A stretch of DNA of 64,000 nucleotides from an uncultured archaeon. Its GTDB lineage: Archaea; Thermoplasmatota; Penumbrarchaeia; JASLWR01. Shown piece by piece: positions 7,685 to 61,850 of the stretch. The notes beneath the pieces were generated by a model. That model did no database searches and was not told the origin of the DNA. It worked only from the letters and a program-made list of their open reading frames with translations. How positions within the stretch are numbered: the stretch's first letter is position 1; every line of letters starts with the position of its first letter. The position numbers and the translations under genes were made by a program. The DNA lies in assembly GCA_964430885.1 (NCBI GenBank), contig CAYSHM010000002.1:141009-205008 (forward strand), read 5' to 3'.

Positions 7685-7808
7685 TGGTGGACAGCGATCC
7701 AGGTTCACGTGGACTCGCGTACCACACTACTTAAAGGAACGCATGCAGGCTTAACTTCTGGGTTCGGGATGTTACCAGGTGAGCCCTGCCGCTCTGGCCG
7801 TCCTACCA
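7685..7808 (-). rRNA. rrf: 5S rRNA
   Basis: Minus strand: GGTAGGACGGCCAGAGCGGCAGGG...CATCCCGAACCCAGAAGTTAAGCC...GCTGTCCACC. Complementary ends, about 122 nt. Confidence 0.93.
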
Positions 7809-7900
7809 TTCTTATATGACATTTATTCAATTATTATATTGAAGTCAATAGGCAAGAAGATATCCATATGTGATCTGTCAAACGGTTGAGCCGATATTAG

Positions 7901-10888
<2,988 letters not shown>

Positions 10889-10920
10889 TATCGACTCAAC
10901 TGGCGTCCAGATCACATATG
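10889..10920 (-). other. 5' arm of the 23S pre-rRNA processing stem with BHB motif (3' arm at 7865-7896)
   Basis: CAUAUGUGAUCUG-GACG-CCA-GUUGAGUCGAUA pairs with UAUCGGCUCAAC-CGUU-UGA-CAGAUCACAUAUG, giving a 4-bp helix with two 3-nt bulges. Confidence 0.9.
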
Positions 10921-53879: not shown

Positions 53880-56777
53880 ATGATTAGGAAATTTGATATA
53901 AAAACAAAATCAGTATCAGGGCACAGAACCAAATGTATGAATCAATTGATGGTTCTAATGGTATTAACGCTATTGTTCGTCTCCTATTGGCCTTCTACTG
54001 GAGGTATGGATAGTATTTGGGAACCCAATAGGACCGGCAGTTTTCGATTATTGATCAGTGAGGTGGGACCTTACGGTAACGATGCTGTTGAAGAGGATTG
54101 GGTCGAACTGATGGTTGTTGAAGGCAGCGGTGATATTTCCGATTACGTCTTGACCACATATGATTCCCAGAACAGGGATGAGGCCTTTTCTACTTCAGCT
54201 GTGACCGTAAATGAAGGAGATTTTATTTTGGTACATTACAACGCTACTGTTGATGATGAAACAGACGCTGCAGGTGATGTTAATTCCAACGGTTATATTG
54301 ATATTTATATCAATTCATCCGACCTTTCAGGTACAAATGAACAGGTGGCACTGTTCACAGCTTTGGATTATTCGGATATTTGCGATGCAGTTTGCTGGTC
54401 AAAGGATGATCCTAGTTCTTCAGAAGTTGATGATTCCCAGGAGATCGTGAACCTTGGTGAGTGGCCGTCTACATCAGTTGAGGACATGGTGCCATCCGCA
54501 GATCTTGAGAAAGGAATCAGTATAGCTAGAAGGTTCAACAGGAATGATGATAATACAAGGGACTGCTGGTATATGGAACCTGAGCCTTCACCAGGTGCCC
54601 CTAACCGCTTATTGGACTTCAACGGGACCGCGCTTATTAAAAGTGTTCACCTCTCATCGAACCCTAAATATGTTTGCTTTGAAGTAACCCAGGGCAGTGG
54701 GAACGTGTCCTCATTAATGATATCCGATTTGGATGGTGTCAGTGACTTTTTCAGCCTTCAGGAAATAACCGGAGATCAAGGGGACATGGTTAATATCATT
54801 TACAGCCAAGGGGTATCGGAAACCGATGATATCGGAGATATGAATAATAATGGAATGATAGACATTTATTATGATGAAAAATTGCCCACTTCCACAATGG
54901 ATTCCATAGTTTTGGTCCACGGTTGGAATGTGCTGGACGCTCTAGCATGGCACTCAGGAACAATTAGTTCTTCCGAACAGAAGGACCTTGATAGACTGAT
55001 ATCTATTGGTGAATGGGACGGTAATGCCACCTCACACTGCATCAATGTATCCGATCTGGATGATGAGCAGGAGATAAGAAGGAAATCAGATATAGCTGAC
55101 ACAAACTCTGTATCTGATTGGGAGATAGCAGCGGTATCCGGAGGGTTTGAGATTCAGGAATTCACCCTTGAGACCTTCGGTGTCGATTCCGTAACATGCG
55201 GTATTTCTCCAGATACCAGTTTTCAACAGCTCTCCTCAATAATTGATTCTGCCCAAACCTCAATATGTGTGGAGGTTTACATATTTGATAATTATGACCT
55301 TGCGGCAAAAATACTCGCCGCTCAAGAGCGGGGAGTGGAAGTAAAGATACTTCTGGAAGGCGGTCCGGCTCACGGTGTCCCCGATATGGAGAAATACATT
55401 ATGTCCCTGATACATGAAAAGGGAGGGGATGTCAGATACATAATAAATGACCCGGATAAAGGAATAAACGAGAGGTATCCGAATATCCACTGCAAATTCG
55501 TTGTGGTGGATCATAGATATACCTTTATCACTTCAGAGAATTTCAGACTGGAAGGAATACCTAGGTTCGGTTCATGGGGCAACAGAGGATGGTCAGTCAC
55601 AGTTGATTCCGCAGATTGTGCTGATTATTTTGAACAGGTATTTCTATATGATTTTTCCAGCAACAGTCCGGATATTAAACCGTATGAAAAAACACATCAT
55701 CAATATGGTGAACCTTCCAAGGAATTCGATCCATCGGATAACAGCTACAAATCCAAGGAAGGCGATCATCCGATTGTCTTCAATCAACAGATAGTTAAGG
55801 GGAATATATCTGTTACTCCCGTACTCTGTCCTGACCATACATCGGAGTTGGAGGCAGTGGTGCCATTGCTGCAAAGTGCCCAAGAATACATTTATGTTCA
55901 GCAGCACAGTGTAAGCGAGAGCTGGCATGATGGTAAAAAGTATATCGATAATCTATATCTGGAAGAATTATATGCTGCAGCCCGCAGAGGTGTTAAGGTT
56001 AGGATTCAATTTGACGAGACCTTCAAATTCAGCAGCGATCATTCAGATATTATCAATCAGACGAACGAGATAGCAGGAGATGAAGATTTGGATATGGCTG
56101 CGATATTCACCTCCAATGAAGCCCTTGGGATCGAGAAAGTACATAACAAAGGTATTATTGTTGACGGAAGCAAGGTGCTGATATCATCAATAAACTGGGC
56201 TACCAATTCAATATACCAAAACAGGGAAGTTGGGATTATAATTGAAAATCTGGAGGTAGGGGATTATTACCGACAGGTGTTTGAATGGGATTGGAACAAT
56301 GCCGATACCGATATCACGGGTACAATAACCGGTATTATCGAGGATACGGAAGGGAGCCCAGTGGAAGGAGCCGAGGTCTATATTGAACTGGATGATGGAG
56401 AAAGGCTAAGATCGGTTACTATGGCAAACGGGTCCTTTTTACTTGAAGGCGTGCCTATTGGGGTTAACAGGATTCATGTGAATGTGTCAGGGTACCAATC
56501 AAATCAAGCTACAGTAGATGTAGCAATGGGTGAGATGGTAAATCAGAATTTTGAGTTGATAAAAAATATTAAAGAAGGTGAAGGGAAAGGAGCATCATTC
56601 TTGGCTATCGGAGTGGTCGTTTTATTGTTGATCCTGTTCATTATCATATTTTTTGCAGTTGTCATTGCTGCAAAAAAGAATAGGAAAGAGGATGATGAAA
56701 AGAAGATTGTCAGATTACATGGTTCAAAGGAACCTTTTGATGATCAAGTGGAAACAGAAAAGGAAAATAGATCTTAA
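53880..56777 (+). CDS. Surface phospholipase D-superfamily enzyme with lamin-tail domains and carboxypeptidase-regulatory-like domain
   Basis: Two HKD motifs (IHCKFVVVD, VHNKGIIVD), LTD (LLISEV...DWVEL...PSPGAPN), GSPVEGAEV domain, signal peptide and C-terminal TM. Confidence 0.88.
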   Translation: MIRKFDIKTKSVSGHRTKCMNQLMVLMVLTLLFVSYWPSTGGMDSIWEPNRTGSFRLLISEVGPYGNDAVEEDWVELMVVEGSGDISDYVLTTYDSQNRDEAFSTSAVTVNEGDFILVHYNATVDDETDAAGDVNSNGYIDIYINSSDLSGTNEQVALFTALDYSDICDAVCWSKDDPSSSEVDDSQEIVNLGEWPSTSVEDMVPSADLEKGISIARRFNRNDDNTRDCWYMEPEPSPGAPNRLLDFNGTALIKSVHLSSNPKYVCFEVTQGSGNVSSLMISDLDGVSDFFSLQEITGDQGDMVNIIYSQGVSETDDIGDMNNNGMIDIYYDEKLPTSTMDSIVLVHGWNVLDALAWHSGTISSSEQKDLDRLISIGEWDGNATSHCINVSDLDDEQEIRRKSDIADTNSVSDWEIAAVSGGFEIQEFTLETFGVDSVTCGISPDTSFQQLSSIIDSAQTSICVEVYIFDNYDLAAKILAAQERGVEVKILLEGGPAHGVPDMEKYIMSLIHEKGGDVRYIINDPDKGINERYPNIHCKFVVVDHRYTFITSENFRLEGIPRFGSWGNRGWSVTVDSADCADYFEQVFLYDFSSNSPDIKPYEKTHHQYGEPSKEFDPSDNSYKSKEGDHPIVFNQQIVKGNISVTPVLCPDHTSELEAVVPLLQSAQEYIYVQQHSVSESWHDGKKYIDNLYLEELYAAARRGVKVRIQFDETFKFSSDHSDIINQTNEIAGDEDLDMAAIFTSNEALGIEKVHNKGIIVDGSKVLISSINWATNSIYQNREVGIIIENLEVGDYYRQVFEWDWNNADTDITGTITGIIEDTEGSPVEGAEVYIELDDGERLRSVTMANGSFLLEGVPIGVNRIHVNVSGYQSNQATVDVAMGEMVNQNFELIKNIKEGEGKGASFLAIGVVVLLLILFIIIFFAVVIAAKKNRKEDDEKKIVRLHGSKEPFDDQVETEKENRS

Positions 56778-56837: not shown

Positions 56838-57056
56838 TTATGGGGATATGTATATCACATTGTCTCCTCTTACTATCACTAAACTGATATTGATGGGTTC
56901 CTCTTCATCTACAATTTCCTGAGCGTTCTTCAGAACTAGATTCATATGTGGATCATATCCATCAAGAATACCTCGGTATTCCCTATTTCCCCGGAGTTCC
57001 ACAATAACTCGGTTTCCAATGTTCTTTTTCAAAGCATCAAGTGGTCTCAAGGCCAT
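56838..57056 (-). CDS. Sm-like archaeal protein (SmAP/Lsm)
   Basis: RPLDAL...GILDGYDPHMNLVL...IVRGDNVIYISP (Sm1/Sm2 motifs). Confidence 0.96.
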   Translation of the reverse strand: MALRPLDALKKNIGNRVIVELRGNREYRGILDGYDPHMNLVLKNAQEIVDEEEPINISLVIVRGDNVIYISP

Positions 57057-57239: not shown

Positions 57240-58382
57240 TCATCTGATGAAATCAATACCCATATCGCCAGAGCTGAAGTCATCCCTTTCTCTGTCCTTT
57301 CTAATATCCTTGAGCTTAACGCCTTTAAGAACTATCATTACTCTGATAGAGTTCTCAAATCTCTCGTCTATATAAGCTCCCCAAATGATCTCTGCGTTGA
57401 GTTCAACTCTGTCCTGGATCTCCTGGGCTACTTTCTGTGCTTCCTTGACGGTCATATCCCTGCCGCCAAATACACATACTAGAGCACCTGAAACATCACT
57501 GATGTCCACATCTAATAGAGGAGATTCCAGAGCATCAGATACCGCTTCTCTTGCTTTATTGGGTGAGTCTCTTGCTTCGCCCATACCGATAACTGCAGTT
57601 CCGCTCTTCTTCATCACTGTTTTCAGGTCGTTGAAATCAAGGTTCACAAGACCAACATTATTTACCATGTCAGTAATGCCTTTTATGGAGTTCATAAGGA
57701 CTTCGTCTGCTACCCTGAAAGCCTGGTTGAGCGGCAGTCTTGGTACAAGTTTCAGCAGTTTGGAGTTCTCGACGATAATAACTGTATCCGTTTCCTCTTC
57801 GAGTTTTCTAACACCCCATTTGGCATTTTCCATTCTGACAATACCCTCCCCGGGGAAAGGTGTCGTCACAATAGCCAAGGTAAGAGCTCCCAGTTCTTTA
57901 GCTATTCTGGCCACAACCGGTGCCGAACCGGTTCCAGTGCCGCCTCCCATGCCCGCCGTAATGAATACCATATCAGCATTCATCAGCGACCGTCTGATCT
58001 CTTCTTCGTTCTCCTTGGCTGCATATTCACCCATGGTGGGTTTTGATCCTGCACCCAGTCCTTGTGTTCTGTGCTGTCCTATAAGCAGTTTAACCGGAGC
58101 GGTTACTGTCAGGAGATGCTGTGCATCTGTATTGATGGCATACATCTTAGCACCGCGTATACCTTCCTCAACACAGCGGGTAATTGTGTTGCATCCTGCT
58201 CCGCCACAGCCCACGATTTTGATCTTTGGGATGTTTCTTTGAATAGCATCCTGTAATTCTCTATCCTGTTGAGACATTTCTTCTTCCGCTTCTTCTGATG
58301 GGATCGAAAAATCTATCTTTTTTGATTGTTTTTTGGATGGTTTATCCACTACTTTTAAAAGTTCCTTAGCCAAAGAAGTCAT
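57240..58382 (-). CDS. ftsZ: Cell division protein FtsZ
   Basis: GCGGAGCN, INTDAQHL, GMGGGTGTG and LVNLDFND. SD AGGAGG. Confidence 0.98.
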   Translation of the reverse strand: MTSLAKELLKVVDKPSKKQSKKIDFSIPSEEAEEEMSQQDRELQDAIQRNIPKIKIVGCGGAGCNTITRCVEEGIRGAKMYAINTDAQHLLTVTAPVKLLIGQHRTQGLGAGSKPTMGEYAAKENEEEIRRSLMNADMVFITAGMGGGTGTGSAPVVARIAKELGALTLAIVTTPFPGEGIVRMENAKWGVRKLEEETDTVIIVENSKLLKLVPRLPLNQAFRVADEVLMNSIKGITDMVNNVGLVNLDFNDLKTVMKKSGTAVIGMGEARDSPNKAREAVSDALESPLLDVDISDVSGALVCVFGGRDMTVKEAQKVAQEIQDRVELNAEIIWGAYIDERFENSIRVMIVLKGVKLKDIRKDRERDDFSSGDMGIDFIR

Positions 58383-58663
58383 TTAATTTCCCTCCTAATC
58401 ATATTGGCATATCTCATTCTATTATTGAGACAATATTATCCTCTCACAATAAATACCATCATAGTCTAATACCGTTTCCTGACGGTGTTTATATATGCCT
58501 TCTATAATCCAGCCCATTAATAGTTATTGTTTAAATAGTTTTCTTATAAATAAATATGTTACTCTAATATTATATTGGCTAGGGGGCTTCTAAGCAATAT
58601 AAGCGGATAATTTTTACCTCCTGCCAGTTCATTTTTTTTATCAATCGATAAATTCGATTTAAA

Positions 58664-58682
58664 TGGAAAAATATTTAAGTAA
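58664..58682 (+). promoter_or_regulatory. BRE/TATA promoter of the rpl3 operon
   Basis: GGAAAAATATTTAAGTAA about 320 nt upstream of rpl3. Confidence 0.5.
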
Positions 58683-58699
58683 AGCCGGTCTTTCCCCCA

Positions 58700-58999
58700 A
58701 GAGGTCGTATTTACAGATGTATAAAATCAGATAAATATGACTGATGTAGATGATACATTGAAAGGGATTTCGATCCTTTGAGGTACTCGCCATACGTGAT
58801 AGGAAAAACATAAGAACTTCCATTGGAGCACCGATCGGTAATGATTCTGGGTGTTCCCAACGTTAAGGCTTGGACGTGATGAAGGAGGATTGGGATATCT
58901 GATCCAAGTGATCCGCTAATAGAATCACTGTTCATAGGATACAGTGGATAATAGAATTGGCGGAAAAAGGAAAAAGCAGTTTGAACAGGGAGGAATCGA
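58700..58999 (+). ncRNA. Structured 5' leader RNA of the rpl3 operon with a C/D K-turn
   Basis: Five consecutive hairpins, including UUCG- and GUAA-capped stems and a GUGAUGA/CUGA K-turn closed by GCUUGGA/UCCAAGU. Confidence 0.65.
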
Positions 59000-59998
59000 A
59001 TGTCAAAAGCACATCATCCAAGGCGTGGTTCGCATAGTTTCTGGCATCGGAAGAGGGCTAAGAAAGCAATATCCAGAGTAAGGAATTGGCCTTCTTCTAC
59101 TTCAAGCGCACCTAAGATACAGGGATTCGGGGGCTACAAGGTAGGAATGACCCACGGGTTTATTATCGATTACAGGAAGAAGAGTACTACCGCGGGGCAG
59201 GAAGTAACAGTCCCGATCACAATCGTAGAGGTACCACCTTTAAGGGTTTGCGGGATACGCGTATATCACAATACTGAATGGGGTTTGAAGACACTGTCCG
59301 AAATTTGGAGCGATAATCTAGATAAATTTGTTAATAGAAAGATATCCGTACCAAAGGAGAAGAAGGAAGATAGTCTAGACGCTCTTCTGAAGATGGATGT
59401 CGATGATGTCAGATTGCTAGTTCATTCCAATCCCTCTAAGGTGAAATCCATTCCCAAAAAGAAACCGGAGTTGATGGAACTCAGAGTTGACGGGGGCACT
59501 ATCGAAGATAGATTGAACTATGCCAAGGAATTGCTTGGTAAGAATTTGGATGTTACGCAGTTCATAGGGGAGGGTCAGATGGTAGATGTACTAGCTGTGA
59601 CAAAGGGCAAAGGATTCCAAGGTCATGTGAAGAGGTTTGGGGTTAAGCTTTTAACTCATAAGAACAGCAAACACAGAAGAATGATCGGTAATTTGGGTCC
59701 CTGGCATCCCAGTTTTGTTCTATCAACTGTTCCTCAGGCGGGTCAAACAGGTTATCATCAGAGAACTGAATATAACAAGAGGATACTGAAAATTGGTGAT
59801 AATCCTGACGACATCAATCCTCAAGGCGGTTTCAAACATTATGGGGAAATAAGCAACAAGTATGTCTTAATCCACGGGTCAATACCTGGACCAAACAAAC
59901 GGTTCATCAGGTTCAGGGATCCTCTGAGGTTCAAGGGCGGCAAGATCGATAATATTGAATTCAGTCACATATCTACACAATCAAAACAGGGTGCCTAG
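59000..59998 (+). CDS. rpl3: 50S ribosomal protein L3
   Basis: HHPRRGS, GYKVGMTH, VTKGKGFQG, GQTGYHQRTEYNKRI. Confidence 0.98.
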   Translation: MSKAHHPRRGSHSFWHRKRAKKAISRVRNWPSSTSSAPKIQGFGGYKVGMTHGFIIDYRKKSTTAGQEVTVPITIVEVPPLRVCGIRVYHNTEWGLKTLSEIWSDNLDKFVNRKISVPKEKKEDSLDALLKMDVDDVRLLVHSNPSKVKSIPKKKPELMELRVDGGTIEDRLNYAKELLGKNLDVTQFIGEGQMVDVLAVTKGKGFQGHVKRFGVKLLTHKNSKHRRMIGNLGPWHPSFVLSTVPQAGQTGYHQRTEYNKRILKIGDNPDDINPQGGFKHYGEISNKYVLIHGSIPGPNKRFIRFRDPLRFKGGKIDNIEFSHISTQSKQGA

Positions 59999-60019
59999 AA
60001 AAAGGGGAGGTGAAAAGAA

Positions 60020-60856
60020 ATGGCAAGAAAGACAACTGATAAAAAACCAATAAAAGCAAGCGCTAGTAAACAGACCTTTAAAAAGGGCAGGAAAAAGGCA
60101 TCATTGTTATCATTGAAAGGAGAGAGTATGAAGAATATCTCCCTTCCAGCTGCATTTGACGAAGAATTTCGGCCGGATATAATCAAACAGGCTGTTACCG
60201 CCCATAGGGCTAATCGGAGACAGCCTTACGGCCCCAATAAAATGTCTGGAATGCATCATGCGGTTTCAACATGGGGTAAAGGCCGCGGTGTGGCAAGGGT
60301 CCAGAGATTATCCCAGGGGAGGATGGCTGCGGAATCGCCGAACAATGTGGGAGGTAGAAGAGCTCATCCCCCTAAACCTGAGAAGAACTGGGGTAAGAAG
60401 ATCAATAAGAAGCAGAGGAAGAAAGCTCTCTTATCTGCTCTGTCCGCCACAACTAATATTGATCTTGTAAGAGCTAGAGGCCACATGGTCAGCCAGGATG
60501 CAAAGATACCAATAGTCTTCACCAATCAGATAGAAAAGGTGATCAAGACCAAGGCACTTACTGACGTGCTTCAGGCGGTTGGGGTTTGGGATGATGTGAT
60601 CAGATCCAAAGATGGCAAGCATATTAGGCCAGGCAGGGGGAAGATGAGGGGTAGAAAATACAAGACCCCCTGTTCCCTCTTGATTGTTGTAGGCAATGAT
60701 TCGGGTATAGCTCTTATTAAAGCGGCCAGGAACCTTTCCGGTGTGACGGTGTGCACTGTTGAAAATCTAAATACAGAGGTGTTGGCACCCGGCGGGGATG
60801 CCGGTCGATTGACAATATTTACCCAGAATGCCATTCAAAAAATCGGGGGTTGGTAA
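60020..60856 (+). CDS. rpl4: 50S ribosomal protein L4
   Basis: RPDII, WGKGRGVARV, GGRRAHPPK, RPGRGKMRGR, LAPGG..GRLT. Confidence 0.98.
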   Translation: MARKTTDKKPIKASASKQTFKKGRKKASLLSLKGESMKNISLPAAFDEEFRPDIIKQAVTAHRANRRQPYGPNKMSGMHHAVSTWGKGRGVARVQRLSQGRMAAESPNNVGGRRAHPPKPEKNWGKKINKKQRKKALLSALSATTNIDLVRARGHMVSQDAKIPIVFTNQIEKVIKTKALTDVLQAVGVWDDVIRSKDGKHIRPGRGKMRGRKYKTPCSLLIVVGNDSGIALIKAARNLSGVTVCTVENLNTEVLAPGGDAGRLTIFTQNAIQKIGGW

Positions 60857-61123
60857 ATGAGCAAACATTCACCATACAAGATATTGAAATATCCGCATGT
60901 AACGGAAAAGGCCATGGATCACATGGATAAAGGTAACAAATTGGAGTTTCTCGTGGACAAGAATGCTACAAAAGAGCAGATCAAAAGGGCCTTTGAAGAA
61001 GCCTTCGAAGTGGAGGTTGTCCAGGTGAACACCCATAACAGAAAGGATGGTAAACATGCCATTATCAAACTATCTAGCAAGTTTTCTGCTGAGGATATTG
61101 GTACTCGAATAGGAATATTCTAA
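60857..61123 (+). CDS. rpl23: 50S ribosomal protein L23
   Basis: YPHVTEKA, LEFLVD..ATKEQIK, AEDIGTRIGIF. Confidence 0.97.
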   Translation: MSKHSPYKILKYPHVTEKAMDHMDKGNKLEFLVDKNATKEQIKRAFEEAFEVEVVQVNTHNRKDGKHAIIKLSSKFSAEDIGTRIGIF

Positions 61124-61142
61124 TTGAAATGAGGTGAAATGC

Positions 61143-61850
61143 ATGGGGAAGAGAATCAGGGCCCAGAGAAGGGGGGTAAGTCCCGCATACCGATCTCCGG
61201 AAAGACGATCAGAGAAACACGTGACACTGCCTAAAATGGAAAGGGGTGTTGGAATAGTTGAGGACATTGAGCATGAATGTGCCAGGTCGGCTCCAGTAGC
61301 GAGGGTCAGGTTTGAAAATGGACAGTCCCTTCCAATGCTGGCACCGGAAGGAATCTGTGTAGGTCAAGAGATTCGGGTCGGCAAGGACGCACCGTTAAGA
61401 ATAGGAAATATACTTCCTTTGTCCAAGATCCCGTCAGGATTGCCCGTATTCAATATTGAGCAGAATCCCAGGGATGGCGGTAAGTTTGTCAAGGCGGCGG
61501 GAAGTGCAGCTGTTGTAGTCAGTCAGGGCAGCAAGGTAGTAGTTCAGCTGCCGTCAGGAAAATTCAAATCATTTATGCCGGAGTGCAGGGCAATTCTAGG
61601 TGTGGCTGCCAGTGGCGGCCGTAGAGAGAGGCCAGTTATGAAAGCAGGTAAGAAATATTATTATTTGCAGTCAAAATCCAAATGTTGGCCCCGGGTTAAA
61701 GGTGTTGCTATGAATGCAGTGGACCATCCTCATGGTGGAGGTGGGCACAGGCACGTTGGCAAATCCACCAATGTTTCCAAGCATACTCATCCGGGAAGAA
61801 AGGTTGGAATGATAGCTCCAAAGAAAAAAGGACGAAGAAATAAAAAATAA
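61143..61850 (+). CDS. rpl2: 50S ribosomal protein L2
   Basis: MGKRIRAQRRG, WPRVKGVAMNAVDHPHGGG. SD GAGGTGA. Confidence 0.98.
   Translation: MGKRIRAQRRGVSPAYRSPERRSEKHVTLPKMERGVGIVEDIEHECARSAPVARVRFENGQSLPMLAPEGICVGQEIRVGKDAPLRIGNILPLSKIPSGLPVFNIEQNPRDGGKFVKAAGSAAVVVSQGSKVVVQLPSGKFKSFMPECRAILGVAASGGRRERPVMKAGKKYYYLQSKSKCWPRVKGVAMNAVDHPHGGGGHRHVGKSTNVSKHTHPGRKVGMIAPKKKGRRNKK

Follow-up and report, generated by a model that had tools for sequence, protein, structure and literature searches.

The analysed stretch of DNA (64 kb, referred to as the window) is archaeal and contains genes for 23S and 5S rRNA. On the plus strand, rpl3, rpl4, rpl23 and rpl2 form an operon (59000..61850) that is headed by a leader RNA (Table 1). 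The gap between ftsZ and rpl3 comprises 617 nt, and the leader feature fills its last 300 nt. From ftsZ to the predicted promoter of rpl3, the spacer is AT-rich (330 nt). GGAGG-type sequences are found in relatives at the place equivalent to that of the Shine-Dalgarno sequence of rpl3.

Some features of the surroundings are independent of the leader. The 23S and 5S rRNA genes are located together at window positions 7686–10893 of the minus strand. The sole 16S gene found in the genome is on the same contig (G000:C2:232771-234239, minus strand), ~81 kb from the 23S and 5S genes, and the rRNA genes are therefore unlinked. An ORF of 965 residues (53880–56777, plus strand) starts with a hydrophobic segment and ends in a membrane anchor, and two HKD-like regions are discernible by eye. 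In two relatives, the rpl3 matches (G023, C287:1430-2413; G035, C9:50095-50406) contain one in-frame TAG each; a sequencing error, a frameshift and stop-codon recoding are all conceivable causes. The rpl3 gene of G035 is split into two matches.

Table 1. Features of the rpl3 upstream region and its neighbouring genes (window coordinates).
Feature	Position	Strand	Basis or remark
Sm-like (LSM) protein gene	56838–57056	−	Divergent from the rpl3 operon
ftsZ	57240–58382	−	Divergent from the rpl3 operon
Predicted TATA box ATAAATAT	58731–58738	+	Aligns with TTATATATA of family relatives
First hairpin, GAUGUA/UACAUU	58743–58748/58754–58759	+	In MFE fold; not conserved
Second hairpin, AAGGGAU-UUCG-AUCCUUU	58762–58779	+	5'-proximal
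Covariance-model match, core and flanks	58776–58894	+	R1 and R3 models
'CCAWACG' block (P1 5' strand, loop, P2 5' strand)	58789–58797	+	Paired with 58860–58869 by RNAalifold
P1 5' strand, GCC	58789–58791	+	Pairs with 58867–58869
Internal loop, A58792 U58793 (5' side) and UAA (3' side)	58792–58793, 58864–58866	+	Between P1 and P2
P2 5' strand, ACGU	58794–58797	+	Pairs with 58860–58863 (ACGU)
P3 hairpin, GGAA/UUCC, 12-nt loop	58802–58805/58818–58821	+	GGGCAA...CCC in most of the phylum
P4 hairpin, lower stem GGAGCACC/GGUGUUCC	58825–58832/58850–58857	+	MFE and centroid folds
Conserved UUCU, just 5' of the 3' strand of the P4 lower stem	58845–58848	+	UUYU in relatives
'CGUMACGG' block (P2 3' strand, loop, P1 3' strand GGC 58867–58869)	58860–58869	+	Conserved in relatives
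Box C/D-like K-turn hairpin, CUUGGA-CGU-GAUGA...CUGA-UCCAAG	58869–58908	+	Sequence; genus-specific
Fifth hairpin, UCCGCUAAU/AUUGGCGGA	58912–58920/58956–58964	+	MFE and centroid folds; between core and ribosome-binding site
Shine-Dalgarno sequence GGGAGG	58988–58993	+	Sequence; 6 nt before rpl3 ATG
rpl3	59000–59998	+	ORF; Pfam Ribosomal_L3, 1.5e-88
rpl4	60020–60856	+	ORF; Pfam Ribosomal_L4, 3.1e-43
rpl23	60857–61123	+	ORF; Pfam Ribosomal_L23, 6.6e-18
rpl2	61134–61850	+	ORF; Pfam Ribosomal_L2_C, 3.1e-42

The original prediction described the region upstream of rpl3 as a densely structured leader with five consecutive hairpins. Inspection base by base showed that all five can be drawn at the proposed places or within 1–2 bases of them. 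The strand-specific folding signal is real but modest: the plus strand of 58690–58999 has a z-score of −2.63, with 1 of 100 shuffles as good, compared to −1.04 and 18 of 100 for the minus strand. The MFE fold of the leader holds the hairpins at 58743–58759, 58825–58857 and 58912–58964, and the K-turn hairpin is absent from it. A single one of the listed hairpins, P4 (58825–58857), is part of the element that is conserved in relatives; the other four lie outside of it, and P1, P2 and P3 had been missed.

The outer hairpins differ in character. The sequence at 58762–58779 can alternatively pair with 58882–58890, which closes the core in the constrained fold. The other three genomes of the window's family have a small hairpin of unrelated sequence at the equivalent place. 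The fifth hairpin encloses CACUGU/ACAGUG (58926–58931/58941–58946), and inspection of relatives likewise revealed a hairpin of unrelated sequence at the place equivalent to 58912–58964. The K-turn hairpin, also listed in the original prediction, is not found in the other three genomes of the family. A search for UGAUGA...CUGA with a closing stem of at least five pairs gave 11 occurrences in the genome and 7–11 in each of five Markov-simulated genomes, which is chance frequency. For these two reasons the K-turn is ruled out as the conserved core. A C box (RUGAUGA) and a D box (CUGA) joined by a terminal stem are present in the sequence at 58869–58908, with just 16 nt between the boxes; the further marks of C'/D' boxes, a guide of ~12 nt or a conserved K-turn are lacking there.

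For comparison of the upstream regions, 30 rpl3 loci were fetched and oriented. When the 311-nt leader was compared with 41 relatives by plain BLAST, the matches were all short. Three matches within the window's family are located ~190–220 nt upstream of rpl3 of the respective genome and mark a syntenic conserved block. Two sequence blocks, CCAWACG and CG(U/C)(A/C/U)ACGG, are common to all 30 upstream regions with a spacing of 57–90 nt. RNAalifold, applied to a structure-blind MAFFT alignment of the 30 loci, pairs these blocks as the helices P1 and P2. In this alignment, compensatory changes are present in four of nine pairs, and one pair occurs with six standard types. Additionally, folding the interior of each locus yields the hairpins P3 and P4 in 30 of 30 cases.

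The conserved core is a three-way junction of ~81 nt (58789–58869, plus strand), in which P1, a 2×3 internal loop and P2 lead to the hairpins P3 and P4. In the window it is situated 130 nt upstream of rpl3, on the plus strand. The internal loop is nearly invariant; its consensus is A-N on the 5' side and M-A-C on the 3' side, and it is flanked by invariant C-G pairs. The upper stem of P4 (58825..58857) is capped by a GUAA loop and there is a bulge on the 3' side. P4 has no conserved sequence apart from UUYU. The MFE folds of 58776–58894 and of 58786–58872 are exactly the consensus fold. For the predicted transcript (58761–59003), the fold constrained to the consensus is only 0.8 kcal/mol above the MFE.

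Within its family, the copy in the window scores lowest (43 bits, compared to 57–73 bits). It has just three P1 pairs, and the model marks its two outer P1 pairs as non-canonical; an A replaces the invariant C174. Because of the short P1 and this substitution the copy may be partly degenerate; alternatively, it may have co-evolved.

In model-fitted alignments, P1 and P2 show standard pairing in 94.0% of the cells with 59 distinct rows and in 92.0% with 97 rows; when the 3' partners are slid, pairing amounts to 22–45%. Changes on both sides of a pair are observed for 8 of 12 pairs (59 rows) and 6 of 12 pairs (97 rows), and the covariation score was reached by none of 500 shuffles. Pairing of P3 in relatives is 89%. 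As all these model-fitted alignments lean towards the structure of the model, the structure-blind MAFFT/RNAalifold result was weighed as the independent evidence. The P4 hairpin forms in all 59 distinct sequences with a mean z-score of −2.09 (53 of 59 below −1).

Invariance was counted in 97 sequences from outside the window's family. In P1, C15 and C16 are present in 96 and 97 sequences, respectively, and the first loop residue (A17) in 96. A19 and C20 of P2 are found in 93 and 97. The GGG of P3 comprises G29 and G30 (97 each) and G31 (94) and is followed by CAA; A34 is found in 92 sequences. On the 3' side, G-U-M-A-C-G-G, the residues G170, A173, C174 and G175 are each found in all 97 sequences and G176 in 96. 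UUYU is present in P4 of 90 of the 97 sequences, compared to a mean of 13 and a maximum of 22 in 200 shuffles. The unpaired positions of the loop and the junction are thus the most conserved, while the stems vary. Invariant unpaired bases next to variable stems are what a site of specific binding would be expected to show, and they fit a specific ligand better than a mere stem.

Possible partners of the UUYU in P4 are the A-rich J4/2 or, in the window's family, the AGAA of the P3 loop. A pseudoknot of this AGAA with the UUCU of P4 looks plausible by eye in the four family genomes. It was dropped as a candidate, since UUYU is invariant and provides no covariation signal.

Three covariance models were used. 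R1 was built from 30 sequences, R2 was rebuilt from 65 hits, and R3 was made without any sequence of the window's family. In the 3.1-Mb genome to which the window belongs, R1 has one significant match (43 bits, E 6.2e-9); the next has an E of 8. Within the class, R1 finds one match each in 33 of 37 genomes. The four misses comprise two genomes without an assembled rpl3 and two with divergent copies upstream of rpl3, which a targeted search detected with 15–17 bits. Of 151 genomes sampled across the phylum, 75 are matched by R1 with a threshold of E 0.1, and 102 have exactly one R2 match with a threshold of E 0.01. Outside the window's family, R2 matches at 98 of 100 rpl3 loci. In the leave-out test, R3 has a single match in the 64-kb window, at 58776–58894 of the plus strand (23.3 bits, E 2.4e-5). 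The rpl3 gene is directly downstream in 36 of 37 matched loci, and the remaining locus stops at a contig end. At the matched loci the motif is always on the rpl3 strand and immediately upstream of this gene. According to the record titles, the groups that carry it include Methanomassiliicoccales (among them Methanomassiliicoccaceae), DHVE2/Aciduliprofundum and Poseidoniia/Marine Group III; titles of close rpl3 loci also name Thermoplasmata. Roughly two of every three Thermoplasmatota genomes sampled have the motif, as a single copy.

No family of Rfam 15 accounts for the element. At gathering score, the 23S and 5S rRNA alone match Rfam 15 in the 64-kb window, and searching 58350–59050 at E up to 10 gave noise only, including C/D matches at the K-turn hairpin (E 7.4 and 1.9). 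At gathering score, 20 relatives show only a tRNA match; at E up to 5, 12 relatives show one sR4 noise match, which is located elsewhere. In the literature, judged mostly at abstract level, no description of a leader of this operon in Thermoplasmatota was found. The original claim of a new structured leader of the rpl3 operon is borne out at the level of computation, as there is no match to an Rfam family and the upstream regions of relatives keep structure and sequence with covariation. The element is an uncatalogued, well supported RNA motif that covaries across much of the Thermoplasmatota.

The TATA box had been placed at ~58672. This position is not conserved and, by alignment of the family, probably lies ~60 nt too far upstream. 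The rpl3 promoter element is more likely ATAAATAT, a weak TATA variant that starts 59 nt upstream of the invariant CC. A TATA-like hexamer (TTWAWA) starts 35–62 nt upstream of this CC in 69 of 98 loci, compared to 14 of 98 and 4 of 98 in the control windows. Twelve loci lacking the hexamer, among them that of the window, were inspected and have a TATA-like variant at the same place. From ATAAATAT, a transcript start near 58761 is predicted. The leader would accordingly comprise ~240 nt instead of the ~300 nt proposed earlier, the hairpin at 58743–58759 would be outside the RNA and the hairpin at 58762–58779 would form its 5' terminus. The promoter-like element is upstream of the structure and does not adjoin rpl3. 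In most lineages the motif is ~15–25 nt from the predicted 5' end.

In the MFE fold, GUCGUAUUUA pairs with UAAAUAUGAC across the predicted TATA region (window 58703–58741). This imperfect palindrome over the promoter could be a protein site at the DNA level or could have arisen by chance.

P1 and the start codon are separated by 16–381 nt, with a median of 81 nt. In loci of the DHVE2 group, the motif is located 16–24 nt before the rpl3 start codon. Five loci with DHVE2/Aciduliprofundum titles (L104, L106, L110, L111 and L114) have the most compact form of the leader; the motif is 16–18 nt before the start codon, and the 3' strand of P1 is 6–9 nt before a GAGGUGA Shine-Dalgarno sequence. These leaders are the best candidates for direct occlusion.

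Metatranscriptome contigs from two runs cover 58926–59134 and, on the ftsZ side, 58300–58482 only; a third run has nothing on this stretch. The coverage is outside the core, and the contig beginning at 58926 has a depth of 2.4.

The original prediction referred to rRNA-mimicking leaders of ribosomal-protein operons. Neither of the conserved strands occurs in the 23S, 16S or 5S rRNA of the genome itself with at most one mismatch, and all matches of the covariance model to the rRNA genes are fragmentary with E > 0.1. Strand and covariance-model searches of these genes thus gave no sign of rRNA mimicry. Resemblances of 7–8 nt to 'GCAACGGU' in 16S rRNA and to 'GUUAAGG' in 23S rRNA were attributed to chance, as neither fits the family consensus. 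A three-dimensional mimic of rRNA is possible.

Complementarity of the motif to the Shine-Dalgarno region is no better than that of shuffled motifs (mean z −0.20, 55 sequences). For 30 of the 59 sequences examined, P4 contains the best partner of this region, although no other part of the motif is as long as P4. Anti-Shine-Dalgarno switching was rejected as a candidate mechanism, since CCUCCGG in the P1 flank of one family does not generalise and the duplex energies do not surpass those of shuffles. Between the motif and rpl3 of the window no oligo-U tract or terminator was seen, and attenuation is thus unsupported.

A ribosomal-protein leader that is operated by a protein is suggested by the neighbouring operon, by the occurrence in single copy, by the location at the 5' end and by the invariance of the loop. 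As is usual for such leaders, the motif occupies a 5' position (with a predicted start) on the coding strand directly upstream of a ribosomal-protein operon, and its structure covaries. Resemblance to the rRNA site of the ligand, which is common in these leaders and not obligatory, was not found. We put the probability that the motif is a ribosomal-protein leader mediating feedback by a protein encoded in the operon, uL4 by precedent or uL3 by adjacency, at roughly 60%. The motif would thus probably act as a new switch through which the synthesis of ribosomal proteins is fed back. The fold, its conservation and covariation, its location, the single copy and the lack of an Rfam match are shown; where transcription starts, which protein binds and in which direction regulation acts are inferred.

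In the proposed mechanism, an operon protein that is in excess over free rRNA would bind the invariant loop and the junction, and the bound protein would lower expression of the operon. The favoured ligand would be uL4 because of the precedent, followed by uL3 as product of the adjacent gene. In loci of the DHVE2 group, the short distance of 16–24 nt would make occlusion of the 30S site sufficient. At other loci (median 81 nt) the route may be via translation, mRNA decay or processing. Since the motif and the start codon are 16–381 nt apart, a single simple occlusion mechanism cannot hold everywhere.

The position of the motif would also suit a constitutive function at the 5' end that involves no feedback by a ribosomal protein. 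A 5'-terminal fold could shield the mRNA, which is expressed at a very high level, from 5'-to-3' decay. Alternatively, the motif could direct endonucleolytic cleavage of the leader and thereby activate translation. The proximity to the predicted 5' end in most lineages (~15–25 nt), the wide range of distances to the start codon and the missing anti-Shine-Dalgarno signal are consistent with a role at the RNA end. Processing has a parallel in Methanolobus psychrophilus, where, as described in PMC5499594, processing of ribosomal-protein 5' UTRs stabilises transcripts and activates translation. The sole RNA contig on the leader has its first base at 58926 and so lies beyond the core; as one contig of depth 2.4, this is weak evidence. 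A stabilising stem, however, needs no invariant unpaired bases, whereas here the loop and the junction are the most conserved parts and the stems vary freely. A stabiliser or processing signal of this kind is thus considered unlikely. The same invariant junction and internal loop within variable stems are typical of aptamers. In a riboswitch-like sensor the junction would bind a small molecule, an ion or another RNA (tRNA or an rRNA fragment) that reports the growth state. The phylum-wide occurrence in single copy and the negative searches for rRNA mimicry are compatible with this explanation. Such an aptamer would set the output of the main ribosomal-protein operon across the phylum, as a global control of growth rate for which no archaeal example is known. 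We regard it as improbable, as the motif is found before rpl3 only and never before metabolic or transport genes. Furthermore, a conserved expression platform is not apparent, since neither anti-Shine-Dalgarno pairing nor a terminator was seen. No riboswitch is known to control a ribosomal-protein operon.

Two further explanations concern parts of the locus. L7Ae-responsive K-turns have been described in archaeal 5' UTRs, and the box C/D-like hairpin at 58869–58908 follows the K-turn rule with a stem of 5–6 bp, a 3-nt bulge (CGU) and tandem G·A pairs formed by GAUGA and CUGA. It could be an L7Ae-binding operator that was added in this genome. This is quite improbable in view of its absence from the other three family genomes, its chance-level frequency and the noise-level C/D matches in Rfam; its stem also competes with outer P1 and the long-range pairing. 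Finally, the motif could be a small non-coding RNA gene of its own, with rpl3 as a mere neighbour, which is very improbable. The DHVE2-group motif ends so close to the start codon (16–24 nt) that there is no room for a second promoter, no oligo-T terminator separating the motif from rpl3 was seen in the window, and the motif is always on the rpl3 strand and directly upstream. A separate gene would be suited by the promoter-like element of its own and by RNA contigs that do not join the core to rpl3.

A ribosomal-protein leader with feedback by an operon protein would be a handle on the balance of ribosomal proteins and rRNA across a whole archaeal phylum. With its sharply defined invariant nucleotides, the motif would represent a new module for RNA–protein or RNA–ligand recognition, and the covariance model is ready for use in annotation.

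Feedback on the synthesis of ribosomal proteins through mRNA leaders is textbook knowledge in bacteria, and few archaeal cases are known. The leader of the S10 operon of Escherichia coli is autoregulated by uL4, which involves NusA-dependent attenuation as well as translational repression. Cis-acting, rRNA-mimicking elements in archaeal ribosomal-protein mRNA are represented by the L1 operator of Methanococcus. Like the S10 leader, the motif heads an operon with the genes for L3, L4, L23 and L2, and the feedback of one operon protein on the whole operon, as in E. coli, is proposed here. Unlike in E. coli, where the operon starts with S10, it starts with L3 in the window, and the two leaders have no match in sequence or structure. 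The S10 leader is bacterial and its distribution narrow (for context, see PMC3616713).

The archaeal leaders of S15 and eL15 resemble the rRNA site of the respective protein according to the survey of Eckert and Weinberg (2020, PMC7247131). As in these leaders and in the Methanococcus L1 operator, the motif is a cis-acting RNA in an archaeal ribosomal-protein mRNA; for those RNAs, binding of an encoded ribosomal protein has been proposed or shown. Unlike them, no resemblance of the motif to the 23S, 16S and 5S rRNA of its own genome was found. Post-transcriptional control in archaeal ribosomal-protein leaders also links the motif to the 5' UTR processing in Methanolobus psychrophilus. That case belongs to another phylum and is defined, in the account given in PMC5499594, by cleavage sites and not by a conserved fold.

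The closest known counterpart is the candidate L4 leader of Archaeoglobi, which is located upstream of rplC-rplD-rplW-rplB (Eckert and Weinberg 2020, PMC7247131). As presented in that survey, it is one of four archaeal candidates for ribosomal-protein leaders and the sole one at an L3-L4 operon, it is confined to Archaeoglobi, its authors rated it 'borderline', and its ligand was inferred from the bacterial L4 precedent (PMC7247131). In Rfam it is apparently listed as L4-Archaeoglobi. Rfam 15, which should include this model, has no match to the leader of the window at E up to 10 or to 12 relatives at E up to 5. The two RNAs are set apart by this Rfam search, and distant homology is possible. 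Both are archaeal structured RNAs directly upstream of the genes for L3, L4, L23 and L2. In contrast to the candidate from Archaeoglobi, another archaeal class, the motif of the Thermoplasmatota covaries strongly and has a far wider distribution.
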